From positions 1 through 38,050 of the forward strand of contig CAZGEW010000001.1 of NCBI GenBank assembly GCA_964524225.1: a stretch of 38,050 bases of DNA, read 5' to 3'. The notes under the pieces are model-generated. The model made no database searches, was not told where the DNA came from, and saw nothing but the letters and a program-made list of their open reading frames with translations. The first letter of the stretch is position 1; the number at the start of each line of letters is the position of its first letter. A program made the translations under genes and the position numbers. Of this stretch, positions 1-34,272 are shown in pieces. Source of the stretch: an uncultured Methanosarcinales archaeon. Its GTDB lineage: Archaea; Nanobdellota; Nanobdellia; Woesearchaeales; GW2011-AR4.

Positions 1-236
1 TAGATTTTATAACCTTTTTTAATGTTTCAAATGATTGGGCAAATTAAGAAGGAAAGGATTTGTAGAAGGAGTTAATATCAATTGATAATAGTAACGAAAA
101 TTTGGCACAGCAATTTCCAAAAGCATCTTTTGGCATAGAGGGATTACTGGTTGGGTAGAAAAAGGAGGCATTATTAAACCAGGTTATACTGTATGGTTGA
201 TGTATTCTACTGGACAAGATTAAGTACACTTTCAAA

Positions 237-2872: not shown

Positions 2873-3083
2873 TTTAAATCACTGAATTTTTTACTCGGTT
2901 GAGACTGCGTAAAAGGATTTTGCTGTTAAGTAAAAGACTTAATTTGGCAGTCGAAATATTGTTTGATGTGATTTAAATGAAGCATAATCAAAAAATGGGT
3001 AGAATTAGTTTATAAATTATACGTGAGCATGTCCAGTGGTTGTTTGCCATATATATTTAATGTTTTAAATCGGAGGAAAAGTT

Positions 3084-3093
3084 TTTTATAAAT
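3084..3093 (+). promoter_or_regulatory. Putative archaeal TATA box (TTTTATAAAT) about 27 nt upstream of the ATG at 3116; implies a leaderless mRNA
   Basis: Motif and spacing only. Confidence 0.4.
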
Positions 3094-3115
3094 ATATTAA
3101 AGATAGTTATATTCA

Positions 3116-5014
3116 ATGGTATTATGTCACTATTGCAACCGTAAATTAGATTGGCTTCCAAGACCATGTAAATTTTGTAGGTATTACTTTTGTTCTAAAT
3201 GTTTTTTACCTGAAAAACACGAATGTGTTGGACTTGAACCTTATTTTAGCGAAGAAAAGAAGAAATTTCAATCTAAAATGGTTGATTTAGCTTCTCAGCA
3301 TGCAAAAGTTCATTACAAAGGATATGAGGATATTGTAGATGTGGAAAGAAAACCATTTTTCTCAAGCAAGCATAAGAAACTAAGCCATACTAAAAGACAT
3401 TATTATGAAGTAGATGAAAAGTATAGAAGAGAATATGTAGGAAGACCATCAACCCATCTTTACAATAAAAAGAACCATAAAATTACATTTGAACAAAAGC
3501 AAATTTTTAAGGTTCCAATGTTTCTTTTGGTTTTAATTATTTTTATTATAGCTATTCTTACTCTGGTAATTCTAGCTAATATAAACGCAACTGAAAAAAT
3601 AATAGAAGAGAGAAAATCTTTCAAAACAATAGAATATAATGAGACAGTTTCTAATGAAATAACCTTTAAAGAATATTTAGAAAATATTTACAGTATTGAA
3701 GGGACTGAAGCCAATATAAAAGGGTTCCTTAGAAGGTATGTAAAATATACAGATGATAAAAATAATGTTGGTGTTTATCTTGAAGCCATTGCTGACGACA
3801 ACAATAATACTCTACAAATTATTAGTATGAATCAAGAACTTAGAAAGTTCTTTCCAAAAAAGGGTACCTCAACAGAAATTTATCAGATTAAAGTGAAATT
3901 TAGAAGAAATTATAAAACCTTACTCTTGGACATTTCTGATATAACCTTAAGTCAAAGAGATCCTATAAGAGTTGTCAAAAAAGAAAGAATAGTGGAATAT
4001 ACAGAAAATGTTACAAAAGAAATAAAAAAACCAAAATTTCCTTTGATAAGAAGAGTTGTATTTGGAACTGTAGGAAAAGAAGTAATATGCGAGGACAATA
4101 CTAAATTAAATAATTGTTCAACAAACAAAACCTATTTCTGCTCCTTTAGTGGTCTTGTAAGAAAGCCCGACCTATGTGGATGTCCAGCAGGTCAAAGATT
4201 TTATTATAGTGACTGTATACCAGAAGTTAAATGTTCTGATGGTACGTTAGAACCTGATTGTTCTACTTACAAACCAAAACAATGCGTGGATGGTGAACTT
4301 ATAGATAATGCAGAGTTGTGTGGTTGTCCAGAAGATCATAAAAAAATTGGAAGAAATTGTCAAAAAATATTCAGATGCGAAGACGGTACAATATACGGCG
4401 AATGTTCTAAAAATAAACCTTATTTTTGTTCTGCTGGTGCTTTAATAAAAGATTCAAACTTGTGTGGATGTGATTGGGGGTACAAATCATATAAAGGAGA
4501 ATGTATAGAGAGTAACAAGGCTGAGGCGATGGAAGCACTTGATTATTTAAACAAAATCAGAAAACAATATGGAAGAAGTGAATTAAAATGGGACGATGGT
4601 TTACATAACCTTGGGATATTCAGAGCTAAAGATATGTATGAAAGGCAATATTTTGACCATGTAACACCAGAAGGAAAATGTGTCAAAGATTTTAAAGCCG
4701 ATTATGGTCTGGCAGAGTATAATATTGCAGAAAATGGAGGGGCTGTAACTTATGGTAGCTATGATGGAAAAATAGATTATGCTTCTTATGCCGATCCTAT
4801 GGCTCAGATTGATGGATGGATGGAAAGTAGAGGGCATAGATATAACCTTCTTTACCCAAGCCATATACTCGGAGTCGTTGCGTGCTATAGAGGAGCATGT
4901 GTATTTTTAGGAGCGAATAAAGAGTATTATGGCTTAGGCTTTGGTCCTTGCACAACTGGAGAGGAAGGTCTTGCGTACTGGCAAACAGTTGAAAAACAGC
5001 AAGACGAGATTTAA
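3116..5014 (+). CDS. Membrane-anchored protein: N-terminal AN1-like zinc finger, one TM helix, three Cys-rich repeats, C-terminal CAP/SCP (YkwD-like) domain
   Basis: CHYC-x10-CKFC-x4-C-x2-C-x5-H-x-C matches the AN1 spacing, with Cys in place of the first His. Hydrophobic helix FLLVLIIFIIAILTLVILA (aa ~136-154). CAP-like region ALDYLNKIRKQYG...LKWDD...AKDM...FDHV...AENGG...GWMESRGHRYNLL. Confidence 0.75.
   Translation: MVLCHYCNRKLDWLPRPCKFCRYYFCSKCFLPEKHECVGLEPYFSEEKKKFQSKMVDLASQHAKVHYKGYEDIVDVERKPFFSSKHKKLSHTKRHYYEVDEKYRREYVGRPSTHLYNKKNHKITFEQKQIFKVPMFLLVLIIFIIAILTLVILANINATEKIIEERKSFKTIEYNETVSNEITFKEYLENIYSIEGTEANIKGFLRRYVKYTDDKNNVGVYLEAIADDNNNTLQIISMNQELRKFFPKKGTSTEIYQIKVKFRRNYKTLLLDISDITLSQRDPIRVVKKERIVEYTENVTKEIKKPKFPLIRRVVFGTVGKEVICEDNTKLNNCSTNKTYFCSFSGLVRKPDLCGCPAGQRFYYSDCIPEVKCSDGTLEPDCSTYKPKQCVDGELIDNAELCGCPEDHKKIGRNCQKIFRCEDGTIYGECSKNKPYFCSAGALIKDSNLCGCDWGYKSYKGECIESNKAEAMEALDYLNKIRKQYGRSELKWDDGLHNLGIFRAKDMYERQYFDHVTPEGKCVKDFKADYGLAEYNIAENGGAVTYGSYDGKIDYASYADPMAQIDGWMESRGHRYNLLYPSHILGVVACYRGACVFLGANKEYYGLGFGPCTTGEEGLAYWQTVEKQQDEI
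4088..4504 (+). repeat. Three tandem ~45-aa six-cysteine modules within CDS 3116..5014
   Basis: CEDNTKLNNCSTNKTYFCSFSGLVRKPDLCGCPAGQRFYYSDC / CSDGTLEPDCSTYKPKQCVDGELIDNAELCGCPEDHKKIGRNC / CEDGTIYGECSKNKPYFCSAGALIKDSNLCGCDWGYKSYKGEC. Shared pattern: C-x-D-G/N-T..C-S..K..C..G-x-L-x5-LCGC-x10-11-C. Confidence 0.65.
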
Positions 5015-5021
5015 TTGTTTC

Positions 5022-5261
5022 TCATTTCCTTTCCCAAACAACAATATTATTTTTCATAACTTTTTTAATTCTGTGCAATGGTATATTAGATTCTTCTTCA
5101 TTATTCAGAACCATAAAAGAACCTTCTAGTTTTTTAATTTTTGTATAAGGAATTTTTATTAGTCTATTTAAAATTCTGTCATAGTAAAAAATTGAATATT
5201 GCTTAGGATTTTCCCTTTTGTCCCACTTTATTTTATTGAGCAAGTCTTTGATTGGAATCAT
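5022..5261 (-). CDS. Small UPF0248/DUF504-like protein (79 aa)
   Basis: The size plus an N-terminal LLNKIKWD and a C-terminal IPLHRIKKV..N..VVWER resemble the archaeal DUF504 family as I recall it. TATA-like TAAAATTTAT lies ~25 nt upstream on the minus strand. Confidence 0.5.
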   Translation of the reverse strand: MIPIKDLLNKIKWDKRENPKQYSIFYYDRILNRLIKIPYTKIKKLEGSFMVLNNEEESNIPLHRIKKVMKNNIVVWERK

Positions 5262-5343
5262 TTAATACTAGTTATACCATTAAAATTTATTCTCTTTATA
5301 AGTTTTTAGGAAATAAGTTATATTTTCTGATTTTGTAAATTTA

Positions 5344-5961
5344 TTATGTTTTTGCCTTTATTCTCTTCATCCTAAAAGTATTCTCTCTTTCAATCTCTTC
5401 CAATCTTAACTGAATAAACGCCCTTATCTTGTCTAAATTTGGAATAACAACAAACTCAAGCGCATTAACCCTTCTTTTTGTTTTTTCAATCTCGTTAAGC
5501 AATTTCCTCATTGATGTTTCAACTTCAGCAGCCAGAATTATCTTCTCAACAACCTTTTCATAAGCTGCAGCCGCTTCATCAACAGCAGATGAATTGTAAA
5601 TACCGTAACCTCGTTCCATAAAAGCTTTTTTAATTTCAGATGATTCTATTTTCGGAACTTTAATGCCCATTATATTTTTTGTAGTTAGCTTTACATCTGG
5701 AATATTTTTTATTGACATTGCAATTGACTTTACTTTTAAGTCACCCTCCAATGTTCTTGCTATGTTTATCTTTTCTAAAGCAATTTTGTATTCATTAACT
5801 AATTCCTCTCTTAATGTTTTTGCTTTTTTTAGAACATCAAAAAACTCAAGAATTAAGCCATCTCTTTTTCTCTTTAGTAAATTATAACCAGATTTAGCTA
5901 GCTTGATTTGTTTTTTTAATTTTAATAATTCACTTCTTGTGGGTTTAATGTCTTGTGACAT
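5344..5961 (-). CDS. atpD: A-type ATP synthase subunit D
   Basis: N-terminus KPTRSELLKLKKQIKLAKSGYNLLKRKRDGLILEF and C-terminal RRVNALE..VIP are typical A/V-ATPase D subunit. Last gene of the atp cluster. Confidence 0.9.
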   Translation of the reverse strand: MSQDIKPTRSELLKLKKQIKLAKSGYNLLKRKRDGLILEFFDVLKKAKTLREELVNEYKIALEKINIARTLEGDLKVKSIAMSIKNIPDVKLTTKNIMGIKVPKIESSEIKKAFMERGYGIYNSSAVDEAAAAYEKVVEKIILAAEVETSMRKLLNEIEKTKRRVNALEFVVIPNLDKIRAFIQLRLEEIERENTFRMKRIKAKT

Positions 5962-5969
5962 TTGATAAT

Positions 5970-6002
5970 AAAAAATTCATTTGCTTTGCAAATGAATTTT
6001 TT
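5970..6002. terminator. Perfect 15-bp hairpin flanked by A6/T6 tracts: AAAAAATTCATTTGC-ttt-GCAAATGAATTTTTT
   Basis: Read directly. Overlaps the last codons and stop of ORF 5977..6588 and ends 9 nt before the atpD start. Confidence 0.5.
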
Positions 6003-6588
6003 TCTGATGTTTTACATCTGCAAAATTTTTAATTACAATTTTTTGATCTATTATTTCGCGCCAAATAACTTCTGCCTTATACTTTGTAGCATGTTCTAAA
6101 TTTTCTACAATTCCAGCAAAAACTTCAATTTGACCATGTACTGCACCTTTTAATGTTCTTTGCTTCTCTCCCACTAATTCTATCAATTCTCGAAACTGTT
6201 GTTCTGTCCAAGCTAGAACATTACCTCTTAAATCCTTATTAATTCTATACGTAAATTTCTCTGCGATTCTTTGAATTACTTTTTCAAGCTCTGGCCCATA
6301 GTGGCTATAATTTCCTTCCAACGCTTTAATAGCTGCACAAACCTCATTTCCGTGAATAAGCCCATAATGTCCAAAAATACCAAATGAGTTTATATGTTTA
6401 AACTGAAGGGCTAATTCAATTGAAGCAGGCTTAATACGCGAACCTATTTCTGTCATTAAGTGTACATACTGTGGGTTAATTGTTAATACATCATGATGAA
6501 AGAGAGAATTGTAAGGATCTTCGCATGAGATTATACCAACATTTTTACCCTTACTAATCAATTGTGTTATATAGGGTATTGCTTCCAT
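5977..6588 (-). CDS. Hypothetical protein (203 aa) inserted between atpB and atpD
   Basis: Long ORF on the operon strand with short spacers to atpB and atpD. No family signature that I can name confidently. Confidence 0.65.
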   Translation of the reverse strand: MEAIPYITQLISKGKNVGIISCEDPYNSLFHHDVLTINPQYVHLMTEIGSRIKPASIELALQFKHINSFGIFGHYGLIHGNEVCAAIKALEGNYSHYGPELEKVIQRIAEKFTYRINKDLRGNVLAWTEQQFRELIELVGEKQRTLKGAVHGQIEVFAGIVENLEHATKYKAEVIWREIIDQKIVIKNFADVKHQKKIHLQSK

Positions 6589-6614
6589 TTAATTTACCTT
6601 TGAAATTAAAAATT

Positions 6615-7979
6615 TTAAGCTTTGTAATACTTCTTCTTTAACTCAGGACTTATCCTTGTTAGCTCATTTTCTGGAAGTAAGCCGAGTAATTTCCATCCTA
6701 AGTCAAGTGTATCTGAAATGCTTCTATCTTCATCTCTTTTTTGTCTTACAAACTTGTCCTCAAACTCAGCTGCAAACTTCAAAAATTTCTTGTCACGCTC
6801 ACTTAATGCCTCCTCTCCTACAATTGCAACTAATCCTCTTAGATCCCTGCCTTCAGCATAAGTAGCATAAAGCTGATCACTGACTTGCTTATGGTCCTCT
6901 CTTGTTCTAGTCGGTCCAATACCTAAATTCATCAATCGCGAAAGAGAAGGTAGAACATCAATGCTAGGATATACACCCTTCCTATGCAATTCCCTTGATA
7001 GAACAATCTGACCTTCTGTTATGTAACCAGTCAAATCAGGAATAGGATGGGTTATGTCATCACCTACCATTGTTAGTATAGGTATTTGAGTTATGCTGCC
7101 TTTCTTTCCTTTAATAACACCTGCTCGCTCGTAAATGGTAGCAAGATCAGTATACATATACCCTGGATAGCCTCTTCTTCCTGGGATTTCTTCTCTTGCA
7201 GAACCTACCTCCCTGAGCGATTCTGCATAATTAGTCATATCAGTTAATATAACCAAAACATGAGCTTCCTGCTCATAAGCAAAATATTCAGCTGCAGTTA
7301 ATGCCATTCTTGGTGTAACAAGCCTCTCAACAGCAGGGTCATTTGCAAGGTTCAAAAAAACAACACTCCTTTCCAATGCACCAGTCTGCTCAAAATCATT
7401 GATGAAGTATTGCGCTTCTTCATTTGTAATGCCCATAGCTGCGAAAATGACAACAAAATTTTCCTGCTTGCCCACAACTTTTGCTTGCCTTGCAATCTGT
7501 AAAGCAATCTCATTATGGGGTAATCCACTTCCAGAGAATAAAGGCAGTTTTTGCCCTCTCACAAGAGTATTCATCACATCAATTGTTGATAACCCAGTTT
7601 GGATGAAATCATGTGGAGAAGCCCGTGCATACGGGTTTATAGCAACGCCAATAATATCAAGCCTTTTTTCCGGAATTATTTCTGGACCATTGTCAATTGA
7701 CTTGCCGCTGCCACTTAGAATCCTGCCAAGCATGTCTCTAGAGACATTAAGCTTCAAAGTGCCACCTAAAAATTTAACTCTTGTATCAACATCAATCCCG
7801 GCAGTACCCTCAAAAACCTGCACAACAACAATATCGTCACTTGTGTCAAGCACCTGCCCATTTTTTATTTCTCCATTTGGCAATGCTATTCTTACTATGT
7901 CAGCGTATCCAACTGGCTCTGTTTTCTCAACAAAAATTAAAGGGCCTGCTACTTTTGTTATTGTTTTGTATTCTTTCAT
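6615..7979 (-). CDS. atpB: A-type ATP synthase subunit B
   Basis: [87 protein letters not shown] are canonical non-catalytic A/V-ATPase B subunit blocks. Confidence 0.95.
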
Positions 7980-7986
7980 TTTTAAA

Positions 7987-8023
7987 GCAAAAAATTCAAC
8001 GGCTTTTCCGTTGAATTTTTTGC
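7987..8023. terminator. Perfect 16-bp hairpin: GCAAAAAATTCAACGG-ctttt-CCGTTGAATTTTTTGC
   Basis: Read directly. Lies 8 nt upstream of the atpB ATG and downstream of the nucleotidyltransferase gene. Confidence 0.5.
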
Positions 8024-8042
8024 TATTTAATTTTACTTTATG

Positions 8043-8071
8043 AAAATTTTTATCATTTGGATAAAAATTTT
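8043..8071. terminator. Perfect 12-bp AT-only hairpin: AAAATTTTTATC-atttg-GATAAAAATTTT
   Basis: Read directly. Lies downstream of the stop of gene 8104..8538. AT-only stems arise by chance more easily in this genome. Confidence 0.35.
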
Positions 8072-8103
8072 TGTATAAAATTATTTAAAATTCTTCTTCC
8101 TAT

Positions 8104-8538
8104 TCATTTCGCCTCAATCCAATTCACACTTTGGTCATTCCATATTTTTCTGAAATGATAAAAGAGATAGTACAACTCTTGAAGATTTTTTGAATAAATT
8201 ATTTTATGTGCATTTATAATATCCATTTTTATATAAAGCGGCAATTCTTCAAAAATTCTGACGTCATATTTATTTGCATTTATGTTCTGCCATATTTCCC
8301 CAAGAAGTTTTGAAAATTGTTCTGGAGTTTTTAATTTTGGGGCTACAATGCAAATATCTATGTCGCTTCTTGCAGTTTGCTCATTTCTTGAATAAGAACC
8401 ATAAAGTAATACGGAATGTATTAGTCCTTTCTCTATTTTATCTTTTAAGAAGCTAAAATCATTTTTTATATTGTTTATTAAATTAGTATCTTTCATTTTT
8501 TTCAATTTTTTTTGTCTGTATGTAACTTCTTCTTTCAT
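8104..8538 (-). CDS. Minimal nucleotidyltransferase (MNT/KNTase-like, Pol-beta superfamily), 144 aa
   Basis: LLYGSYSRNEQTARSDIDICIV matches the G-S-x9-12-D-x-D nucleotidyltransferase signature. Inserted between atpA and atpB. Confidence 0.8.
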   Translation of the reverse strand: MKEEVTYRQKKLKKMKDTNLINNIKNDFSFLKDKIEKGLIHSVLLYGSYSRNEQTARSDIDICIVAPKLKTPEQFSKLLGEIWQNINANKYDVRIFEELPLYIKMDIINAHKIIYSKNLQELYYLFYHFRKIWNDQSVNWIEAK

Positions 8539-8546
8539 TTTTAATT

Positions 8547-8579
8547 AAAAAAATTTCAGTCAAAGATTGAAATTTTTTT
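8547..8579. terminator. 12-bp hairpin flanked by A7/T7: AAAAAAATTTCA-gtcaaagat-TGAAATTTTTTT
   Basis: Read directly. Lies between the GATase gene stop and the nucleotidyltransferase start. Confidence 0.4.
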
Positions 8580-8629
8580 CTAATGGTTTACATAAATTTT
8601 TGTTATCTTTAATTTAATTTTGATTCATT

Positions 8630-9355
8630 TCACGCAATTAAACCTGCTAGTTCTAAAAAATTGTTAATTATTATACGTCCATTTCTTTGATACCCGGGTT
8701 TCAAAATTTGATAATCTTGTAATATTGTTGCTTTATCATATCCTAAAAACATTGTATCAGATCTTAACCAATTCCTGAGCATTGCAGACGTAATCTCAAG
8801 ATGCCCTTGTATACCATATGCTCTTTGCCCAACTTTAACCACTTGTGATTCTATTTGATATTCTCCATGACCTTTACCAAGTAAGGTTACCCCTTCTTTG
8901 AGGACTACAGTTTCTCCGTGCAGTTGAAAAATTGGAAATGGGCTGTTAACTCCTTTTAACAAATTCTCGTTTATTCCTTGCTCTGTGACTTCAACCTGGA
9001 AATAATTTCCATTTTTATCTCTACAACCAACCTCTTTAAAGTCTGCTTTTTGTACTAAACCACCAGCTACTTTGACTAATACCTGCTTTCCAAGACAAAT
9101 ACCAAGATATGCAACATTTTCTTCTAGGGTTTGCTCAACAAATTCCACTTCATTTTTCATTTCTTTATCATTTGCACTTTGAGGACCACCTAAAACTATA
9201 ACAGCAGAATACTCATTAGGATTTGGAAATCTCATACTACGAGAATGTGGATTATATGGTCTAATAGGAATCTTATACCCATCTAAAATAGTCTTTATCA
9301 AACCTGGACCTTCTCGATGTATATTTTTTATAACTAAAACTTCTCCTAAAGCCAT
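8630..9355 (-). CDS. Stand-alone class I glutamine amidotransferase-fold protein (241 aa)
   Basis: Nucleophile elbow YLGICLGKQV and a His-x-Glu pair in GIQGHLE. The start lies 1 nt after the atpA stop. Confidence 0.8.
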   Translation of the reverse strand: MALGEVLVIKNIHREGPGLIKTILDGYKIPIRPYNPHSRSMRFPNPNEYSAVIVLGGPQSANDKEMKNEVEFVEQTLEENVAYLGICLGKQVLVKVAGGLVQKADFKEVGCRDKNGNYFQVEVTEQGINENLLKGVNSPFPIFQLHGETVVLKEGVTLLGKGHGEYQIESQVVKVGQRAYGIQGHLEITSAMLRNWLRSDTMFLGYDKATILQDYQILKPGYQRNGRIIINNFLELAGLIA

Positions 9356-9356
9356 A

Positions 9357-12300
9357 TCAAACCCTCAACTCTTTTTCCATCTGCTTTGTGATTTCATCAA
9401 GCAACTTTTCATAATCCTCTATGAACTTCACCTCACTTAACTTGTCTTTTGCCTTTGTTGCGAGTATTTGATGCACTCTCATTCCACTGTCTAGTGCAGC
9501 ATTTGCCAACTTTGAAAAGTGAAGTATTGCTTTCATAATTGAATACGTTTTCTTTAAATCACAATATGTATCAACATCGTGATACGCATTCTGTTGTAAC
9601 AAAACCTCTCTGACCAACCTTGCAACTAGTAGCACTAACTGTTGCCTTTCTGGTAGTGCATCAGAACCAACCAACTGTACTATCTCAAGCAATTTATCCT
9701 CTTCTTGTAGTATACTCATTGTCTCTGTAACTAATTTGCGCCAGTCTAGTGCAACATTTTTTGCATACCATGGCTCGAGGGTATTTAGGTATAAAGAATA
9801 GGAAGTAAGCCAGTTTATAGCTGGAAAGTGCCTTCTTTGAGCTAACTTTGCGTCTAGAGCCCAGAAAACTTTTGTAACCCTTAAGGTGCCTTGAGTAACA
9901 GGCTCAGAAAAATCTCCGCCTGGAGGGCTAACAGCTCCGATAATGCTCACACTACCTACTTTTTTTATATCAAGCGGAATAACCCTGCCAGCTCTTTCAT
10001 AAAACTGTGCCAATCTTGTTGAAAGGTAAGCAGGATAGCCTTCTTCACCTGGCATTTCCTCCAACCTTGATGAAATCTCTCTCATTGCTTCTGCCCATCT
10101 TGAGGTGGAATCTGCCATTAATGCAACAGAATAACCCATGTCTCTAAAATATTCAGCGATTGTAACTCCTGTGTAAATACTAGCTTCTCTTGCCGCAACA
10201 GGCATATTGCTTGTATTTGCGATCAACACAGTTCTATTCATCAACGGTTCACCAGTTCTTGGGTCAGTTAATTCTGGGAATTCTGTAAGCACTTCTGTCA
10301 TTTCATTTCCTCTTTCGCCACAGCCGACATAAACTATGATATCAGCATCACTCCATTTTGCAAGTTGCTGCTGGCTTACAGTATTATGAAGAATCATTGG
10401 GGAATTACCACCAACAAAATTGTGCGTATTTGGAACGGTGATATCATATACATCTGTTTCACAATCCACAATATCAATACTTATAATTTCATCGCAGAAA
10501 ACATACTCAAGGGCATTTCTAAAATCTTGTAGATATTCGACATTGAGTAAATCAACAACTTTGGAAAAAGTCTGAACTGTTTGTTTACTGTTATGATAAT
10601 ATGTTGTTGTAGAAACTCCTTCTTTTTCAAGTAAATAAGGTTTTCTTTGCTCTAATATTTTTTTAAGCAGTCCAGAAGTTATTGGGACAATATCATTGCT
10701 GTTATAATAAAACTCCTTATCATAATAAGGCGCAAGCTTTATAGCCTCTCTTGGCGATATAAATAATCTGTAATATGTTCTGTTGTCTATTATTCTCTGG
10801 CTTAATCTATGCAATATGCCGAGTCTTAATAGCAGATAAGATAATCCATATTGCATCACTTTGCTTGCTGTGGTTACTTCTACCTCTTTTTTACCTATGT
10901 ATCCATCACAACTTATATACGCAATCAAAAAGCTATTAATTACAGAATCAGGTGACTTCATCAATATTGAAGGAACTTTAATAGTTCTTGATTTTTTATT
11001 TAATGGGTAGTCAACACTTTCTAAAATCTTGACTAATGCTTTGCTGCTTACTGCAACTGCTTCTACAGTTCTTGCATAATATTCCTTGGTTCTTAGTCCA
11101 AATAACTTTTGTGTTAAATAGGATACTCTGTCTCGTAATTGCTTTTTTTGATTAAAGAAATGCACTGACGAACCACCTTTTATCATACCATCAGACATTA
11201 AATAGCCAAGCAGCTCTGAAAAGTTTTCTGAGAAAGATTGAGGGATATTTACTATTGTAGAGTCTCTCTCAACTTTTATTTTTGTAATTTTTAAATCCTG
11301 ATTACTTAATTTATATAAGGATTGCACAAAGCTAAGAGTAGGGTGGTTTCTATTGTAATAAAAGTTCTGCAGCGTATGTTCAGGCACTCCAATATGCTCT
11401 GCCAACCTCTTTTTTGTGATACGAGTTTTTTCACAATGAGCATCTATTATATTAGGGATATTCCTTAAAATATCTTCATCACAAACCCTGCAAGCAAAAT
11501 TAATTGGAAAATTTTGGTATTCTGCCTCAACTCCGATTTCTCTTGGGGCTATTATAAAATCGCCTTCATTTAAGTTTTTAGCTTCTGTCTCCACAATATT
11601 TAAATTTTCATCAATTTTAAACAGCTTATGGATTGGTGTTACTTTTACTTTTCTTCCTGAGCTTGTTTTTATCTCAACTAATTGACTTGTTTTTCCTTTA
11701 TATACATGTGTTGCAACACTTTCTTCAATCTTATTTTTATTAAAAGTATATATGTTCAAGGGATATGTTAGCTCAATTAAGGTTTCGTATTCATTTGGTT
11801 TTATTATCTTATTTGTTTTGTTCACAGCACACGTCTCATACAGTTTCTTAATTTCTATTAACTCGTCATTTACAAAAATTAGCGTGTCTCCTGAAACACA
11901 TTTTCCCGCTCCAAACGGACCAGGAATTGCAGCAACCCCTCCTTTTGCTAAGGGGAACAGAGCATCAAAAATTCTCTGTCCTGTTATCAAAGGTGCTTCT
12001 GGTTTTAGCTTTGAACTTACTGGTCTTGCTACCCTTACAGGCCAATTGTGCTTTAGCTTAAGCTCGAACCCATTATCAAGTTTCCCAATAATATCGTTAA
12101 CAGTAAATTTTCCTGACTTTATTTCTGTAATTTTCCCTTTTTGATTTGGTGGAACAAGAACTTTGTGGATAATTCCTGGGTTTTCTTCAATTTCACCAAT
12201 AATTTGTCCAGAAACTACATTTTCACCGACTTTCACCGTCGCTTTAAAGTCCCATTTCTTAGTGTAATCTAGGCCAGGAGCATCAACACCTCTTTTGATG

Positions 12301-12599
12301 AAGTCACCCATCTGCTTAACTAAAACAGGCAATGGTCTTTGTATGCCATCATAAATGCTGCCAAGCATCCCAGGTCCAAGCTCAACTTTTAATGGCTCAC
12401 CTGTATTAATAACAGGCTCCCCTGGCTTTATTCCAGAAGTATCCTCATAAACTTGAATAATTGATTTCTTACCCTCAATCTGTATTACTTCTCCCATTAA
12501 ATTTTCATTCCCGACTCTACAAACATCGTACATCCTTGGCTTTATACCTTTAGCCACTACAACAGGACCTGCAATTCTATATAAAACTCCTATTTCCAT
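9357..12599 (-). CDS. atpA: A-type ATP synthase catalytic subunit A, interrupted by an intein (1080-aa precursor; 574-aa spliced extein)
   Basis: N-extein ends IPGPFGAGK. C-extein starts TVSQQQLAKWSDADIIVYVGCGERGNEM and continues with SRWAEAMREISSRLEEMPGEEGYPAYL and AVSPPGGDFSEPVTQ. All are canonical A-subunit blocks. Confidence 0.95.
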   Translation of the reverse strand: MEIGVLYRIAGPVVVAKGIKPRMYDVCRVGNENLMGEVIQIEGKKSIIQVYEDTSGIKPGEPVINTGEPLKVELGPGMLGSIYDGIQRPLPVLVKQMGDFIKRGVDAPGLDYTKKWDFKATVKVGENVVSGQIIGEIEENPGIIHKVLVPPNQKGKITEIKSGKFTVNDIIGKLDNGFELKLKHNWPVRVARPVSSKLKPEAPLITGQRIFDALFPLAKGGVAAIPGPFGAGKCVSGDTLIFVNDELIEIKKLYETCAVNKTNKIIKPNEYETLIELTYPLNIYTFNKNKIEESVATHVYKGKTSQLVEIKTSSGRKVKVTPIHKLFKIDENLNIVETEAKNLNEGDFIIAPREIGVEAEYQNFPINFACRVCDEDILRNIPNIIDAHCEKTRITKKRLAEHIGVPEHTLQNFYYNRNHPTLSFVQSLYKLSNQDLKITKIKVERDSTIVNIPQSFSENFSELLGYLMSDGMIKGGSSVHFFNQKKQLRDRVSYLTQKLFGLRTKEYYARTVEAVAVSSKALVKILESVDYPLNKKSRTIKVPSILMKSPDSVINSFLIAYISCDGYIGKKEVEVTTASKVMQYGLSYLLLRLGILHRLSQRIIDNRTYYRLFISPREAIKLAPYYDKEFYYNSNDIVPITSGLLKKILEQRKPYLLEKEGVSTTTYYHNSKQTVQTFSKVVDLLNVEYLQDFRNALEYVFCDEIISIDIVDCETDVYDITVPNTHNFVGGNSPMILHNTVSQQQLAKWSDADIIVYVGCGERGNEMTEVLTEFPELTDPRTGEPLMNRTVLIANTSNMPVAAREASIYTGVTIAEYFRDMGYSVALMADSTSRWAEAMREISSRLEEMPGEEGYPAYLSTRLAQFYERAGRVIPLDIKKVGSVSIIGAVSPPGGDFSEPVTQGTLRVTKVFWALDAKLAQRRHFPAINWLTSYSLYLNTLEPWYAKNVALDWRKLVTETMSILQEEDKLLEIVQLVGSDALPERQQLVLLVARLVREVLLQQNAYHDVDTYCDLKKTYSIMKAILHFSKLANAALDSGMRVHQILATKAKDKLSEVKFIEDYEKLLDEITKQMEKELRV
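10383..11900 (-). mobile_element. 506-aa intein with LAGLIDADG homing-endonuclease domain, inserted in the Walker A motif (GAGK|intein|T)
   Basis: Starts with Cys (CVSGDTLIFV, block A); TPIHKLF (block B, TxxH); LLGYLMSDGMIKGG and FLIAYISCDGYIGK (two LAGLIDADG motifs); VYDITVPNTHNFVGG (block F); ends MILHN followed by Thr +1. Codon check: 11898-11900 = TGT (Cys1), 10383-10385 = AAT (terminal Asn), 10380-10382 = ACT (Thr+1). Confidence 0.9.
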
Positions 12600-12889
12600 A
12601 AGTCAACTCCAATTGATTTTTTAATTAGCCTTTTCAAGCTATCTTGCTCATCTTTAGTTGAGAGTGGAATAAATACAGGCTCAACCGAAGCCTCAATAGC
12701 AGTTTTTTGATATATATCAAGACTGTCCATTATTTTTTCATCAACAACCACAATGCCAATATCTTTTTGGTTTTTTAATCGGTCGAGTTCGTTAAAGTAA
12801 TCGCCTGTAACTTCAATGACATCTCTGACACCAGCTAACTGAAATCCTACAACAAATTCACTTCCTCCAAGTACAGCTATTTTAACCAT
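12590..12889 (-). CDS. atpF: A-type ATP synthase subunit F
   Basis: MVKIAVLGGSEFVVGFQLAGV...IGIVVVDE is typical of subunit F. The track ORF starts at 12928, but those 13 extra codons are encoded by the 12899..12933 hairpin, so the ATG at 12889 is preferred. Confidence 0.85.
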   Translation of the reverse strand: MVKIAVLGGSEFVVGFQLAGVRDVIEVTGDYFNELDRLKNQKDIGIVVVDEKIMDSLDIYQKTAIEASVEPVFIPLSTKDEQDSLKRLIKKSIGVDLWK

Positions 12890-12898
12890 GTTGAAAAT

Positions 12899-12933
12899 AA
12901 AAAATGTCAATTGCTCTGCAATTGACATTTTTT
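12899..12933. terminator. Perfect 16-bp hairpin flanked by A6/T6: AAAAAATGTCAATTGC-tct-GCAATTGACATTTTTT
   Basis: Read directly. Lies between the atpC stop (12937) and the atpF start (12889). Confidence 0.5.
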
Positions 12934-12936
12934 ATA

Positions 12937-14025
12937 TTAATATACAAGTTGATTTTCTGTGAAATCTTCACTTAATCCGAGCTGTTTCCCTTTCACGATA
13001 ACCTTTAAGTTCCTTACTTCTATATCTTTTGCGAACATATAACCTAGTATAGTATCAATTGATAAAGGATGCTGATGCATAAACAAAATCGATTGCTTGA
13101 GAAGGTGCTTGTACATCTCTGTCTCTAATGCTATTAAAGAGCCTGTTCTTTTGAATTCTGTTATGCCCTCTAAAATAAGATTTTTGTACTCGGTTTTCTC
13201 AAATGCCTTAGAAAGTTGCTCTAAATCATCATGGGTTGCAAGATTCATAATCATGTTGTCTTTTATATTGTTGCCAGTGGTTATAACAAAATTCTTTATA
13301 ATGTCTTTACCGAACTTTGCTTTTTTCAGCCTCAACAACGTCAATATGTTCAGTATCTCAACTTCTTTCAGCAAGAAGTCCTTGAAAAGCTTCCCTTCTT
13401 TTGGCAAAATGCTTGAGAATTTGATTAGGTTAGTGTAATAATATTTATCTAATGTATTTTCAATCCCAACCAAACTGTTTTTCTCTGCTAATTCCTTCAG
13501 CCCATCTCTGAAGTAAGAAAAATCAATCATGTAATTATTTTTTAAAACCTCTTCTATGGATTCTTTTTTTAAAAGAGAAATTAAAAACTCGTAGCTTAAA
13601 GTACCTGCCGCTGTTAGTGAGTTAATTATCTGCCTTTCATCACTGTTTGTGAATTTCCCTCTTAAGATTGTCTTTATGTCTTCTATGTCTTTTCTTTTGG
13701 CATATTCACTTACCAATAATCCAAGTTCATAAGAGGATATCCTAATCAGCTTCTTGAAAGACTCTGCAAGATTTTTGTTTAATGCGAGCTCTAGCAGATC
13801 TGCTCCAGAGTAGCGAGTGGCAAGCTCATTAATTTCTTTTTTGTAATGTGACTCCTGCAAGAATCTTGCAATCTCGCTAAAACCCATCTTTAGCATTTTG
13901 GCATAATCTTCTTTCTTAAAGAGCAAAGCCCTCATCACCACAGTCCTTACATACGTGTAAGGGTAAAATCCAAGCTTGATTTTCTGTTCTGTTGATGGCT
14001 CTTTTAACTTTAGCATATTAACCAA
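12937..14025 (-). CDS. atpC: A-type ATP synthase subunit C
   Basis: 362-aa helical protein in the canonical position between atpE and atpF. N-terminal YPYTYVRTVVMRALL and C-terminal EVRNLKVIVKGK resemble the A/V-ATPase C(d) family. Overlaps atpE by 8 nt. Confidence 0.85.
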   Translation of the reverse strand: MVNMLKLKEPSTEQKIKLGFYPYTYVRTVVMRALLFKKEDYAKMLKMGFSEIARFLQESHYKKEINELATRYSGADLLELALNKNLAESFKKLIRISSYELGLLVSEYAKRKDIEDIKTILRGKFTNSDERQIINSLTAAGTLSYEFLISLLKKESIEEVLKNNYMIDFSYFRDGLKELAEKNSLVGIENTLDKYYYTNLIKFSSILPKEGKLFKDFLLKEVEILNILTLLRLKKAKFGKDIIKNFVITTGNNIKDNMIMNLATHDDLEQLSKAFEKTEYKNLILEGITEFKRTGSLIALETEMYKHLLKQSILFMHQHPLSIDTILGYMFAKDIEVRNLKVIVKGKQLGLSEDFTENQLVY

Positions 14026-14563
14026 ACAGTAACTTGTTTATATTTTGCAGCTCGCTTTCTTTTATGCTTTCTAGCAATGTATCAAAGCTGTAATCAACCC
14101 TTATTGTTCTTTCATTATTTTCAGCAATTAAGCCGCCGCTTATGTTAACTGTTTCTATTTTAAAGTCTTTAATGAATTTTGCATCTCTCTCGTTGCAGTT
14201 AACATAAGTTAAGTTGATATCCTCTTTTGCTTTTTCTAATAGTTTTTTTATGTAAACTTCCCTTTTCTTGTCTTCCAAAGCTTCAAGTTTTTTTCTTGCA
14301 GTTGCAAACACTGCTTCTATGAGCTGTTTTTTCGCTTCCAAAACCATTTTTTTGTTTTCAAGCTCTGCACTTGCTAATTCTTGCCTTTTGATAGTTTCTA
14401 TCATTCTTTTTGTCTCTGCTTCACTTATTTCTTTCATATCCTCAATCTTTTTTTCTGTTTCTCTTAGTATTTTATTTGCTTCTTTTCTGGCTTCTGCCAG
14501 TAAAGCAGATTCCTGCTCCCTAGCAGTTCTAATTACTTCTTCCTTTACTGCTTCCAGTTCCAT
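14018..14563 (-). CDS. atpE: A-type ATP synthase subunit E
   Basis: 181 aa with an N-terminal charged coiled coil (EEVIRTAREQESALLAEARKEANKIL) and a globular C-terminus, in the canonical operon position. Confidence 0.8.
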   Translation of the reverse strand: MELEAVKEEVIRTAREQESALLAEARKEANKILRETEKKIEDMKEISEAETKRMIETIKRQELASAELENKKMVLEAKKQLIEAVFATARKKLEALEDKKREVYIKKLLEKAKEDINLTYVNCNERDAKFIKDFKIETVNISGGLIAENNERTIRVDYSFDTLLESIKESELQNINKLLFG

Positions 14564-14569
14564 TTGTTC

Positions 14570-14800
14570 TTAGCCAGCTAATCTGATGATGAGAAATGCA
14601 ACCAACAGCCCAAATATTACAATTGTTTCGGGAATAACTGTTAGTATTAAGCCTCTACCAAACAGCTCTTCCTTTTCAGCCATTGCACCAACTGCAGCAA
14701 CACCAATTTCCTTTTCAGCCCAAGCTGCTGCAATTGCACTTGCACCAATAGCTGCTCCAGCAGCAAGCGCCACTAATCCCGTTCCTAAGTCAACTACCAT
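14570..14800 (-). CDS. atpK: A-type ATP synthase proteolipid subunit K (c), single hairpin, 76 aa
   Basis: Two Gly/Ala-rich TM helices (GLVALAAGAAIGASAIAAAWA ... LILTVIPETIVIFGLLVAFLI) with the conserved carboxylate (PET) in helix 2. Confidence 0.85.
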   Translation of the reverse strand: MVVDLGTGLVALAAGAAIGASAIAAAWAEKEIGVAAVGAMAEKEELFGRGLILTVIPETIVIFGLLVAFLIIRLAG

Positions 14801-14807
14801 TTTTCAA

Positions 14808-14813
14808 CCTCCT
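14808..14813 (-). promoter_or_regulatory. Shine-Dalgarno-like AGGAGG 7 nt upstream of the atpK ATG
   Basis: Plus strand reads cctcct at 14808-14813; the minus-strand mRNA reads AGGAGGUUGAAAAAUG. Confidence 0.45.
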
Positions 14814-14865
14814 ATTATTTTATTATTTTGATTTTGTTTTTATTATTTTTTATCGGTTCTATTTC

Positions 14866-16704
14866 TTAATCCTCTTTTAATCCAAACGGCTTGTACTTTT
14901 TAGCACCGCCATGGAAAAATTTTGAAAAAAACTCGACATAGTGTAGTCGTAAAGAGTGCAAGAAGCTTCCAAGCCATCCAATTAGGATATTAACTATGTG
15001 TCCAGTAACCAAAATAAGCACCCCAATTAATACAAAGACCCCTCCTTTGTGGAAGAACTCTTTTACAAATTCGTTGACTATCAAAGCCAGAATAACAGAG
15101 GACAAGCCAATAGCCGCTAATCTTACATAGGATAAAATGTTTGTAAATATAGTTGGAATCTCAATAAGTCCTCTAAAGCCCTCGCCTTTGAGCAGCATCA
15201 AAATAGATGCTACAAAAAATACTACCCCTATAATAGGGGAGATTGTAATTTTCTTAAGATAAGCCAAAGCAAGCATTGCAATTCCTAGTTCTAATAAAAT
15301 CCAGCTTGCTTTTGCATAAATCGCATGCATTAACCCATGACTCCTTAACTCGTTTACAAATCCAAGTATAAGCCCAAGATTTACATGTATTAGTCCTATA
15401 GCAATTGTTATAACCATTAGTTTTTCTGCACCATGCTCTCTGCTTACATAAGGATGATAAATCTCAAACCCTAAAAATTCTGCAAACACAAATCCAAACA
15501 ACATAGAGATAAAAGAAGCAAGCATTAGAATGTTAAAGAGGTTTTTTGCTTTAGGCATTTTTTTCTTTAGCAACCAGAAGAAAGCAAAGCTTATAAGTCC
15601 ATAGCCAATGTCACCAAGCATTATGCCGAAGAAGATAGGGAATGTGAGGAAAACGAAGAATGTAGGGTCAATCTCTTTGTAGGCTGGAACGCTGTAAATG
15701 TCAAGAAAAAACTCAAATGGCTTGATAAGTTTTGCATTTTTTAATTTTACAGGGACGTTATCCTTTTTCTTTGCAGGCTCGAAGTGCACAAACACCTTAT
15801 CTTTGCTTGCTTTGTTTAATCGTACTATTAATTTGCTCAAGTCATTATTTGGAACCCATCCTTTTACTAGGAAGCTACTCTGAGTTGATGCAAACTTCAA
15901 TGGCGCCTCTGCTTTTTCAAGCTGTTCTGTTAGGAAATAATCAGAGGCTATCAAAAATCCTGTATAGTCTTTTGCAAGCCTTTGGAGCTTGTTTTTCAGT
16001 TCCTCCTTTTTTACTTGAATTTTGCTGCTTTCTTCCTGAGCTTTCTTCAAGTTTTCAGATGCAGTTCCTTTAAGGTTAGCTATGTTAGTAAAATTAAATT
16101 GCATAAAGCCACTTTTTTGCAGTGCCTGAATTGCTTTTTCCTTAAGCTTTGCATCAACAAACAAGATAATGAAGTTTCTTTTTTTGGATTCAGAAGAGAA
16201 AAGCATAAAGTCCTTTATGGTTCTTGAGAGTTCATCTCTCAAAACATCAAAACTTGTTTTGATGTAGCCAGTGAAGTATTCTAGTGACTTGTAAGAGGTT
16301 AGATTTTCAAGAGGTAGATTAATGCCGTTTAAAATTTCAAGTTCCTGCATTAAAGCCCTGTTCCTTGAGAGCACTTCTTCTATTTTCTTCAATTCCTCTA
16401 ACGTTAATGTCACTTCTTTGCTTAATTTATTTACAGTTGGTTCAATCTCCAGTAAGCCCTTTTTCAGCTCAAACTTGGCTTCTTCTTTCTTTATGTTTAA
16501 TGCCGACATCAAGGCTCTTACCTTTACAAGAATCTCTGAAAATTTTGACGCACTTTCCAATGGAGTCCCTATGTCTGCCGTATCATTTTTTGTATGCTCC
16601 ACAATGTGGAGTACCTTTAAGTCATGCAATTCTTTTATTGTAGGCTCCTGCAAGCCTTTTGCTCCTGTTATAATCACGCTTGACATCTCATAAGGATTGA
16701 ACAT
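14866..16704 (-). CDS. atpI: A-type ATP synthase subunit I (a)
   Basis: 612 aa. Soluble N-terminal coiled-coil half and polytopic C-terminal half with SYVRLAAIGLSS (essential Arg helix) and LRLHYVEFFSKFF. Confidence 0.9.
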   Translation of the reverse strand: MFNPYEMSSVIITGAKGLQEPTIKELHDLKVLHIVEHTKNDTADIGTPLESASKFSEILVKVRALMSALNIKKEEAKFELKKGLLEIEPTVNKLSKEVTLTLEELKKIEEVLSRNRALMQELEILNGINLPLENLTSYKSLEYFTGYIKTSFDVLRDELSRTIKDFMLFSSESKKRNFIILFVDAKLKEKAIQALQKSGFMQFNFTNIANLKGTASENLKKAQEESSKIQVKKEELKNKLQRLAKDYTGFLIASDYFLTEQLEKAEAPLKFASTQSSFLVKGWVPNNDLSKLIVRLNKASKDKVFVHFEPAKKKDNVPVKLKNAKLIKPFEFFLDIYSVPAYKEIDPTFFVFLTFPIFFGIMLGDIGYGLISFAFFWLLKKKMPKAKNLFNILMLASFISMLFGFVFAEFLGFEIYHPYVSREHGAEKLMVITIAIGLIHVNLGLILGFVNELRSHGLMHAIYAKASWILLELGIAMLALAYLKKITISPIIGVVFFVASILMLLKGEGFRGLIEIPTIFTNILSYVRLAAIGLSSVILALIVNEFVKEFFHKGGVFVLIGVLILVTGHIVNILIGWLGSFLHSLRLHYVEFFSKFFHGGAKKYKPFGLKED

Positions 16705-17046
16705 CTAAACCATCTCTTCAAACTTCTTCATCACAAATTCTACTGATTTTGCTATGTTCTTTTCTGATTTTGCCTTTATCTGCTTTGCAATTAATCTTCC
16801 TTCTGCCAGCTTTTCTTCTTTTAGGAGTCTTGCCTTGTCCCTGAATTCAATCAGTTTTTTCTCCTGTGATTTTCTTATCTCTTCCTCCTTTATAGCTAAA
16901 AGCTTTGAAGAATTCCTTACTGCCTCACGGATTATTGCTTCTTTTTCGCTTTTTGCCATTTCTAGAATCTCTTCCGCCTTTTTTTCAGCTTCCTTAATCT
17001 CTCTTAAAATTTCAATTTCTTTTACATAAGTTTGGGTTACATCCAT
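16705..17046 (-). CDS. atpH: A-type ATP synthase subunit H
   Basis: 113-aa highly charged coiled coil. First gene of the cluster and abuts atpI with no spacer. Confidence 0.7.
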   Translation of the reverse strand: MDVTQTYVKEIEILREIKEAEKKAEEILEMAKSEKEAIIREAVRNSSKLLAIKEEEIRKSQEKKLIEFRDKARLLKEEKLAEGRLIAKQIKAKSEKNIAKSVEFVMKKFEEMV

Positions 17047-17070
17047 TTTGTCTCAAAAGAATCTAATAGG

Positions 17071-17083
17071 TATTTATAAATTT
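17071..17083 (-). promoter_or_regulatory. Putative TATA box (AAATTTATAAATA on the minus strand) about 27-30 nt upstream of the atpH ATG; candidate atp operon promoter
   Basis: Motif and spacing only. Confidence 0.4.
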
Positions 17084-17194
17084 GTTGTTAACCTTTATTA
17101 AATAAAAATTTAAATAAAAATTTTTAAAATAAACTACTTTCTCATTTGATTGTGTATTGATTGGGCTCGTAGCTCAGCTTGGAATTAGAGCGAT

Positions 17195-17219
17195 ATGTGT
17201 ACTATGTTAAACACGCTAA
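17195..17219 (+). other. Putative tRNA intron 1 (~25 nt) between the D-arm and the 5' strand of the anticodon stem (around positions 26-29)
   Basis: Removing ATGTGTACTATGTTAAACACGCTAA joins ..GAGC-G-AT to AGC-CTCCTAA-GCTGT, giving a 5-bp anticodon stem (AUAGC/GCUGU with one G-U). Exact junctions are ambiguous by 1-3 nt. Confidence 0.5.
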
Positions 17220-17250
17220 AGCCTCCTAAGCTGTAGGTCCTGGGTTCGAA

Positions 17251-17291
17251 ACAACTGCGAAATTCACTTCGTTCGCAAACATTGACGAAAA
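17251..17291 (+). other. Putative tRNA intron 2 (~41 nt) inside the T-loop (around positions 59/60)
   Basis: CTGGG-TTCGAA and T-CCCAG are separated by ACAACTGCGAAATTCACTTCGTTCGCAAACATTGACGAAAA. That insert contains a 6-bp stem, TGCGAA/TTCGCA. Removal restores a 7-nt TTCGAAT loop. Confidence 0.5.
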
Positions 17292-17349
17292 TCCCAGCGG
17301 GCCCGTTTTAATTGAAAAAGATAATAGTCTACTAAAGAACTAGCATACC

Positions 17350-34237: not shown

Positions 34238-34272
34238 AAAAACCTCACTTTGCAAAGCAAAGTGAGGTTTTT
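34238..34272. terminator. Perfect 16-bp hairpin flanked by A5/T5: AAAAACCTCACTTTGC-aaa-GCAAAGTGAGGTTTTT
   Basis: Read directly. Lies between the GT2 stop and the ATG at 34280. The track ORF start at 34250 lies inside the hairpin. Confidence 0.5.

Follow-up and report, generated by a model that had tools for sequence, protein, structure and literature searches.

In DPANN archaea, which lack respiratory chains, the A-type ATPase may pump, make ATP or control pH. The closest described pairing of a carbonic anhydrase (CA) with a rotary ATPase of the V/A type is that of animal acid-secreting cells. According to the Discussion of PMC7052238, cytosolic CA II supplies H+ to the V-ATPase in renal intercalated cells; the CA makes H+ and HCO3- and the pump exports H+. 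That pairing is physiological and involves a eukaryotic alpha-class CA, whereas the case described here is known from gene adjacency alone. It was found in a stretch of 38,050 nucleotides (the window; contig CAZGEW010000001.1 of assembly GCA_964524225.1), which holds in full the A1Ao ATPase operon of an archaeon of the Woesearchaeota type (DPANN). Two genes inside this operon are the main subject, one encoding a CA-like protein and the other a glutamine amidotransferase (GATase):

5977..6588, minus strand: CA-like gene of family A1, 203 aa, between atpB and atpD; without Pfam or NCBIfam match
8630..9355, minus strand: stand-alone class-I GATase, 241 aa, between atpA and atpB; Pfam GATase E 1.3e-17

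The operon also contains a minimal nucleotidyltransferase (NTase) gene and an intein in atpA. We give about an even chance to a reading in which the genes of the CA-like protein and the GATase are accessories typical of the lineage, expressed along with the pump, and in which the NTase and the intein travel as selfish elements.

The first-pass annotation, made by a model from the letters of the window, had listed the 203-aa protein as unknown. Its predicted structure identifies it as a divergent protein of the beta-CA fold. The AF2 model, based on a 28-sequence alignment, reached pLDDT 86 and pTM 0.82. Foldseek returned 96 PDB matches at E<=1e-3 with a best E of 2e-6, and all of the matches listed were beta-CA or LCIB/LCIC entries. 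In a VIA-wide structure ranking with an aligner independent of Foldseek, ranks 1-18 were all beta-CA, LCIB, COS or CS2 hydrolases, with Z 14.6 to 9.6 and 127-173 residues aligned. The next row had Z 6.8. Beta-class CAs (Pro_CA, PF00484), represented by Cab of Methanobacterium thermoautotrophicum (1G5C), yeast Nce103 (3EYX) and Can2 (2W3N), showed the same fold with Z 10.9-14.6. The longest structural overlap was with LCIB/LCIC (LCIB_C_CA, PF18599; 5K5W and 5B5Y), comprising 171-173 residues over model residues 1-183 with Z 13.1-13.9. A true LCIB-type gene occupies the atpB-atpD slot in genome G001 of the same genus and in four genomes of the order sample described below. Unlike LCIB/LCIC, the 203-aa protein had no sequence match to PF18599 and is about 50 residues shorter.

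In sequence searches, the 203-aa protein matched no Pfam family at E<=0.01, did not reach the Pro_CA gathering score and had no match in NCBIfam. Its family, A1, comprised 30 homologues at E<=1e-3, mostly of 177-196 aa and none of them annotated. The window gene is about 20 aa longer than the rest of the family. A profile search with A1 recovered just six clusters among 1.84 billion representatives. Pro_CA matches were present in three of 28 members and were weak, with a best E of 0.013. An hhalign comparison of the A1 profile with the six Pro_CAs that occupy the slot in relatives gave a probability of 57% and E 1.1e-4. It placed C22-x-D24 on the canonical C-S-D and C84 on the Cys of HxxC. C22, D24, H74 and C84 were invariant in 28/28 A1 members, and H79 or H81 was kept in all 28. 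Invariant Cys, Asp and Cys residues that align to the metal-site Cys, Asp and Cys are shared with the beta-class CAs. The spacing between His and Cys is not, as the stretch from the conserved FGH to the second Cys is longer by seven inserted residues, resulting in H-x9-C versus H-x2-C. Judged from these alignments, the predicted metal site is non-canonical. Compared with the beta-class CAs, the 203-aa protein further differs in its lack of a Pfam match, a Tyr in place of an Arg, the tiny size of its family and the position of its gene inside an ATPase operon.

Other searches with the protein contributed little. A PDB sequence search with the A1 profile gave nothing meaningful, the top match being an aminotransferase with E 0.02. 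Comparison of the profile with the LCIB protein of G001 by hhalign was weak (E 0.012) and covered the C-terminal 52 columns alone. The same comparison with a 277-aa slot protein of genome G014 was uninformative (E 0.33). In the ESM Atlas, the nearest clusters lay at 0.86-0.89 and two of them had Pro_CA on 24-39% of their members, which we treat as a lead only. PADLOC gave two weak, non-significant matches with a best E of 0.0035.

A homodimer was predicted for the 203-aa protein with a score of 0.85, compared with 0.01 for the best control. Contact agreement was at least 91% and partner pLDDT at least 87. Among solved structures, 20 of 30 homo-pairs and one of 23 single chains attain the same score mark. 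The predicted interface takes in residues 23-25, 31-32, 81 and 85. It includes motif residues, as in beta-CAs, whose active-site residues also lie in the dimer interface. The pass may reflect mere likeness of the model to solved beta-CA dimers.

The position of the CA-like gene recurs in relatives. Within the genus, 19 loci had atpB and atpD on one contig, and four of them carried a CA-type gene in the slot, each of a different lineage. These were A1 in the window, a Pro_CA in G018 (60.8 bits), an LCIB_C_CA protein in G001 (180 bits) and the 277-aa protein of the CsoSCA/duplicated type in G014. The last had no Pfam match. Its model reached pLDDT 96, and the best structural matches were a duplicated Porphyridium beta-CA, the carboxysomal CsoSCA and a cadmium zeta-CA with Z 10.9, 10.1 and 8.8, respectively. 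At order level, a sample of 401 genomes was searched, 155 of them with atpD. The tally includes four unpublished genomes (G357, G250, G174 and G252), on which no other result rests:

Pro_CA over the cut-off: 12 matches; 10 just upstream of atpD, 1 just downstream (G416), 1 elsewhere (G209)
LCIB_C_CA: 9 matches; 4 just upstream of atpD, 1 just downstream, 4 elsewhere
A1 family: 2 matches; both just upstream of atpD

Altogether, 18/23 CA-superfamily matches stood beside atpD, across 13 GTDB families. For five slot Pro_CAs, atpB was confirmed on the other side. The 18 adjacent cases are not 18 independent events, because the genomes are related and recombination through the flanks is possible. 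By rough arithmetic, assuming about 1,300 genes, chance placement beside atpD would still occur about once per several hundred tries. A phylum-level Pro_CA search of 141 genomes yielded five genomes, all of the same order and none of them new, and is uninformative on other orders.

Of the 18 loci with the A1 family itself, the window counted, 13 had the family gene next to atpB, atpD or both. For this count, a partial match with 32% identity (L076) was dropped, and L061 and the G146 locus were taken as one since they are the same contig. The remaining five loci shared an arrangement in which a 255-258-aa open reading frame (ORF) lies directly upstream of the family gene. Four of the five continued with ORFs of 322 aa and 410 aa, in the arrangement purE-like, A1, purC-like. 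Pfam was run on one of these loci, L067, and identified AIR carboxylase (PurE), SAICAR synthetase (PurC) and phosphofructokinase; the sequence of L075 ends inside the A1 gene. A CO2-using enzyme beside the A1 gene fits the CA chemistry suggested by the fold.

Several other features of the slot were observed in relatives. In one genus, the atpB-atpD slot held a Pro_CA plus a 263-aa ORF without Pfam match, as seen in L079 (G072), positions 629-1420, and the same spacing was present in G264 and G195. Besides its normal atpK, G001 has an extra 83-aa c-subunit gene (ATP-synt_C E 3.5e-18) at positions 3512-3763 of L036, where it separates atpB from the CA of the LCIB type. Two other genera of the order, represented by L051 (G033; 3262-5793) and L052 (G027; 9065-10234), had tandem atpK genes or repeats, with at least nine matches in G033. 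These c-subunit arrays replace the single 76-aa atpK of the window. L071 (4500-8525) and L045 (G003; 1-4490) carried large inserts of toxin-antitoxin (TA) and GATase genes, and no atpD was found in the roughly 4 kb that follow atpB. The CA-like gene of L071 is followed by a 299-aa ORF instead. The 4.4-kb contig C118 of G146 (L061 = L086) bears the public label 'uncultured Methanosarcinales archaeon', while the genome is placed in the order of the window. Its atpB and atpD were 63-70% identical to those of the window. The Methanosarcinales label probably arose as an artefact of binning or naming.

The second recurrent occupant is the GATase. Stand-alone type 1 GATases ('GMP synthase-like', similar to NCBIfam PRK06490/PRK07053) form a family of about 236-241 aa with no known acceptor or synthase partner. 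The window protein shares with them the GATase match and the Cys-His-Glu triad. It differs in that its gene is fixed between two catalytic-head genes of an ATPase. The GATase domain PF00117 scored 64.6 bits against a cut-off of 22.8, and the triad C87 (in G-I-C-L-G-x-Q), H185 and E187 was invariant in 12/12 aligned sequences. NCBIfam equivalog models all scored far below their cut-offs (101.8 versus 339), and PADLOC made no defence-system assignment. Other than atpA and atpB, no partner is fused to the gene or adjacent to it. As the first-pass annotation had claimed, its ATG lies 1 nt past the atpA stop, and an SD-like GAGG is located 9-12 nt upstream of the ATG. The spacer measured 1 nt in G015, 1 nt in G006 and 0 nt in G048. 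Translational coupling of the GATase to atpA is plausible from this spacing. Eleven of the 43 genus genomes encoded the GATase, with a single copy each and 11/11 between atpA and atpB. No copy outside this slot was detected in the genus at E<=1e-8. Two subtypes were present: the window type was 50-59% identical to the proteins of G011, G020 and some metagenomes, and the other type 41-47%.

The remaining genes of the operon were assigned as follows:

16705..17046, minus strand: atpH, 113 aa; directly upstream of atpI; NCBIfam AhaH E 1.2e-3 and PRK08404 E 5.6e-4, both below cut-off
14866..16704, minus strand: atpI, 612 aa; Pfam V_ATPase_I E 1.1e-33
14570..14800, minus strand: atpK (c subunit), 76 aa; Pfam ATP-synt_C E 5.8e-16
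14018..14563, minus strand: atpE, 181 aa; Pfam vATP-synt_E E 7.7e-15
12937..14025, minus strand: atpC, 362 aa; Pfam vATP-synt_AC39 E 1.2e-65
12590..12928, minus strand: atpF, 112 aa; Pfam ATP-synt_F E 2e-12
9357..12599, minus strand: atpA, 1080-aa precursor, 574 aa spliced; Pfam ATP-synt_ab_N, Xtn, ATP-synt_ab and VA_C, nucleotide-binding domain split by an intein
10383..11900, minus strand: intein in atpA, precursor residues 234-739, 506 aa; Intein_splicing E 2.1e-25, LAGLIDADG_3 E 1e-16 in two stretches
8104..8538, minus strand: MntA-type minimal NTase, 144 aa; Pfam Polbeta E 4.4e-13, NTP_transf_2 E 3.2e-10
6615..7979, minus strand: atpB, 454 aa; Pfam ATP-synt_ab E 1.1e-81 plus N and C domains
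5344..5961, minus strand: atpD, 205 aa; Pfam ATP-synt_D E 1.5e-54

The identity of atpH rests on its position and weak matches; the position is kept in relatives with 44-72% identity. The c subunit shows a P-E-T motif in helix 2 and lacks a Gln in helix 1, features of the kind that bear on whether H+ or Na+ is the coupling ion. With this proviso, Pfam bore out the interrupted gene order claimed by the first-pass annotation, atp(H)-I-K-E-C-F-A-[GATase]-[NTase]-atpB-[203 aa]-atpD on the minus strand. Also as claimed, atpA and atpB are about 1.4 kb apart (1377 nt), an additional gene lies between atpB and atpD, and all inserts are on the operon strand. The order H, I, K, E, C, F, A, B, D on one strand was found likewise in at least 20 relatives. 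Public records give Candidatus Woesearchaeota as the label for relatives of the source genome. The source genome of the window (G000) comprises 1.31 Mb on 107 contigs and is 90.7% complete.

A chimeric assembly is excluded, because independently assembled contigs bridge every insert junction. All five (atpD/203-aa, 203-aa/atpB, atpB/NTase, NTase/GATase and GATase/atpA) were spanned, with 0-1 differences, by Logan contigs of four DNA runs. These runs belong to a single groundwater study, and the source sample may be among them. Nor did the genus offer the inserted genes elsewhere beside an intact operon, with A1 in 0/42 other genomes and the GATase never outside its slot. In two runs, a joint at 5963-6362 that skips 398 nt was disregarded, its shorter side being just 20 nt.

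Outside the operon, three features were recorded. Just past the MJ1316-domain gene that comes after atpD, positions 3116-5014 on the plus strand encode a protein of 632 aa. It has an AN1 zinc finger at its N-terminus and a CAP (cysteine-rich secretory protein) domain at its C-terminus, and also contains a membrane segment and Cys-rich repeats. The 303-nt spacer between GluRS and atpH (17047-17349) contains a relatively GC-rich stretch resembling a structured RNA; neither ARAGORN nor Rfam, at the gathering threshold and at E<=1, found a tRNA or Rfam RNA in it. A TTTATAAATA box is located about 30 nt ahead of the atpH ATG.

The atpA intein is absent from the gene account of the first-pass annotation. 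Archaeal A/V-ATPase A-subunit inteins are inserted in the P-loop after GxxGxGK, start with Cys +1, end in His-Asn before Thr as first C-extein residue and contain LAGLIDADG. The window intein has all of these features. It lies after the P-loop Lys with the junctions GAGK|CVSG and ILHN|TVSQ, and the splicing domain, LAGLIDADG, N-terminal Cys and C-terminal His-Asn with the nucleophile Thr were all present. In Thermococcales, the site of such A-subunit inteins is known as 'vma-1b'. The window intein differs from the described cases in its DPANN host and in a genus that holds empty, mini and full-length alleles. Most atpA frames of the genus had about 580 aa without intein, and those of G016, G015, G003 and the window had 1070-1088 aa. 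In G058 and L064, just the two intein ends aligned, and the span in G058 implies an insert of about 185 aa. From these lengths and alignments, the atpA alleles appear to represent a homing cycle at its empty, full and decayed stages. Insertions were also observed in atpB, which encodes the non-catalytic B subunit. In L055 (G019; 546-1567), L056 (G008; 298-1304) and L065 (1778-3351), insertions of about 1.0-1.6 kb interrupt atpB at residues 252-301 and leave the frames continuous. These are probably inteins.

The NTase compares with the HepT-MntA type VII TA system, in which a HEPN toxin is paired with a minimal NTase antitoxin. Polbeta scored 49.7 bits (cut-off 26.9) and NTP_transf_2 40.7 bits (cut-off 21), and the motif G-S ... 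D-x-D was present as GS...SDIDI. The NCBIfam model MntA_antitoxin scored 46.2 bits, under its cut-off of 60, and PADLOC matched the candidate PDC-S09/M05A nucleotidyltransferase models alone. In G003, G021 and L071, NTase homologues in the atpA-atpB slot stood directly after a HEPN ORF of about 150 aa with the R-x4-H motif, and G003 and L071 carried a second such pair in this slot. Unlike these modules, the window NTase has no HEPN partner; the 91-nt spacer between GATase and NTase contains no HEPN ORF. A tblastn search with three HepT proteins of relatives found no hepT in G000 at its 90.7% completeness. Residues 15-106 of the window NTase matched the start of the G003 MntA with 74% identity. 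The first approximately 13 codons and the upstream DNA resembled the 5' ends of hepT genes in relatives, at 83% over 35 nt. The N-terminus MKKEISYREKRYKEKID agreed with the hepT start MKEEVTYRQKKLKKMKD at 8/17 aa (E 0.029). These matches suggest that the toxin body was lost in frame and that the first approximately 13 hepT codons became fused to the antitoxin. The NTase looks like the orphan MntA-type antitoxin of a decayed HepT-MntA module and like a true mobile passenger. Of the three unrelated foreign genes postulated in the first-pass annotation, the NTase retains this description, being mobile-looking. The CA-like gene and the GATase do not, as both recur in the same slots of relatives.

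Two hairpins lie in front of operon genes:

7986..8024, unstranded: A-run/T-run hairpin with a 17-bp stem, ending 6 nt ahead of the atpB ATG
5970..6002, unstranded: A-run/T-run hairpin with a 15-bp stem, sharing sequence with the final codons of the CA-like gene and ending 8 nt ahead of the atpD ATG

Further hairpins of the same class were located at 8043-8071 and 34238-34272 of the window. The idea that the two atp hairpins are insertion scars specific to the inserts was rejected, since G000 contained 93 such perfect hairpins (stem >=12 bp, A-run start, T-run end). Among the 93, 23 had TTCA...TGAA arms with covarying inner stems; the reversed-pattern control gave none. An ORF was called on both sides of 84 hairpins. 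Of these, 67 lay between same-strand ORFs, often 0-15 nt ahead of the next start, and 12 lay between divergent ORFs, for which a pure terminator role does not account. The hairpins could act as partial terminators or as processing or stabilising sites. Transcription of atpB and atpD must pass through or across them, because there is no promoter room after the hairpins. A sigma-70 promoter scan gave a count under that of shuffled sequences, and its model is not applicable to archaea.

From the computed identities, fold, predicted dimer, slot recurrence and spacing we infer enzyme activity, co-transcription and pump coupling in the following form. A zinc-type homodimer of the beta-CA fold would be encoded between atpB and atpD and made together with the pump. 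The same would hold for a catalytically intact class-I GATase, translationally coupled to atpA. The CA would interconvert CO2 + H2O and HCO3- + H+ beside a machine that moves protons. Glutaminase action of the GATase would release NH3, a base that takes up H+. Between them, the two enzymes would supply or absorb protons and keep the cytoplasmic pH buffered during ATPase pumping or ion entry in a fermentative cell. Carried to its full extent, this would make the CA and, in this genus, the GATase dedicated acid-base partners of the A-type ATPase in a Woesearchaeal 'CA / rotary-ATPase metabolon'. The partners would be made in a fixed ratio with the head and stalk subunits and perhaps docked on the A1 head, and the pairing would have been of enough benefit for at least four CA lineages to be recruited to the atpB-atpD slot. 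We offer this fuller version tentatively and hold it to be rather unlikely.

A number of observations weigh against an accessory role linked to the pump. At the putative metal site, the window protein has Tyr26 in place of the Arg of the CxDxR dyad. The canonical zinc-His column in the hhalign comparison is occupied by Asn81, with His in 20/28 members. Occurrence is patchy: within its genus the A1 family was found in the window genome and in 0/42 others, and the GATase was not found in 32/43 genomes. CA and GATase occur independently, together in the window, G001 and L071 and elsewhere each without the other. With the three profiles, a CA was detectable beside atpD in just about 18/155 atpD-bearing genomes. 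The CA is an accessory and not a core pump subunit, because about one in nine atpD-bearing genomes has it there. The conserved atpB and atpD flanks could spread slot cargo by homologous recombination. With terminator-like hairpins before the atpB and atpD starts, the operon may not be one transcript, and no RNA run was found to contain window positions 5300-12700.

The strongest competing explanation is a housekeeping CA that supplies HCO3-/CO2 for anabolic carboxylations (by carbamoyl-phosphate synthetase, a biotin-type carboxylase and purine AIR carboxylation) and sits in the atp operon for steady expression, next to an ordinary GATase without link to the pump. E. coli Can and yeast Nce103 have such a role in anabolic carboxylation. 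Bicarbonate users are encoded in G000, namely CarB (two CPSase_L_D2 domains in a 1089-aa frame) and a second ATP-grasp carboxylase, together with an AIRC-family protein. One A1 lineage lies between purE and purC, outside the atp operon. The GATase family is likewise widespread outside atp operons, with 42-45% identity in, for example, Methanolobus, Chlorobium and Omnitrophica. A housekeeping role would be enough to explain retention of the CA gene. It fails to account for the presence of at least four CA lineages at one and the same operon junction, for the position of 18/23 CA matches beside atpD or for the single junction shared by 11/11 genus GATases, and other highly expressed operons would have been equally suitable. 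We regard this explanation as possible and on the doubtful side.

According to a second alternative, the atpA-atpB and atpB-atpD junctions are permissive sites in which mobile or dispensable cargo is swapped via the conserved flanks and has no role linked to the ATPase. The same operon does attract selfish DNA, as seen in the atpA intein, the probable atpB inteins of relatives and up to two or three TA pairs in the atpA-atpB slot of G003 and L071. The slot content differs among close relatives with atpB about 90% identical, and both inserted blocks end in the generic intergenic hairpin of the genome. A tree of 26 atpB sequences leaves the carrier clades unsettled; 16 of its 23 inner branches are unresolved and the bootstrap is not settled, so that it is not read for gain or loss. 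Yet the cargo of the atpB-atpD slot in the genus belonged to the CA superfamily in 4/4 family-assignable cases, with one c-subunit ORF in G001 besides, and the GATase has the 0-1-nt spacers of a native operon gene, an intact triad and no second copy. With these regularities, a permissive site without functional link is improbable.

A full-text literature search, judged by titles and abstracts, gave no paper on CA genes within ATPase operons of archaea. New are the compact CA lineage, the counts at order level, the presence of four CA lineages within a single genus, the recurrence of the GATase as a second slot occupant and the TA decay. The 203-aa protein defines a branch of the beta-CA superfamily that is compact, unannotated and unusual in its His-to-Cys spacing, and annotation pipelines miss it. 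The operon is also a small collection of selfish DNA, with intein alleles at three stages and decaying TA modules. If the accessory reading is true, the repeated presence of a CA, in part with a GATase, in the pump operon points to a pump that works with the acid-base chemistry of CO2, HCO3- and NH3. It would then be the first prokaryotic genetic counterpart of the animal pairing of CA and V-ATPase.

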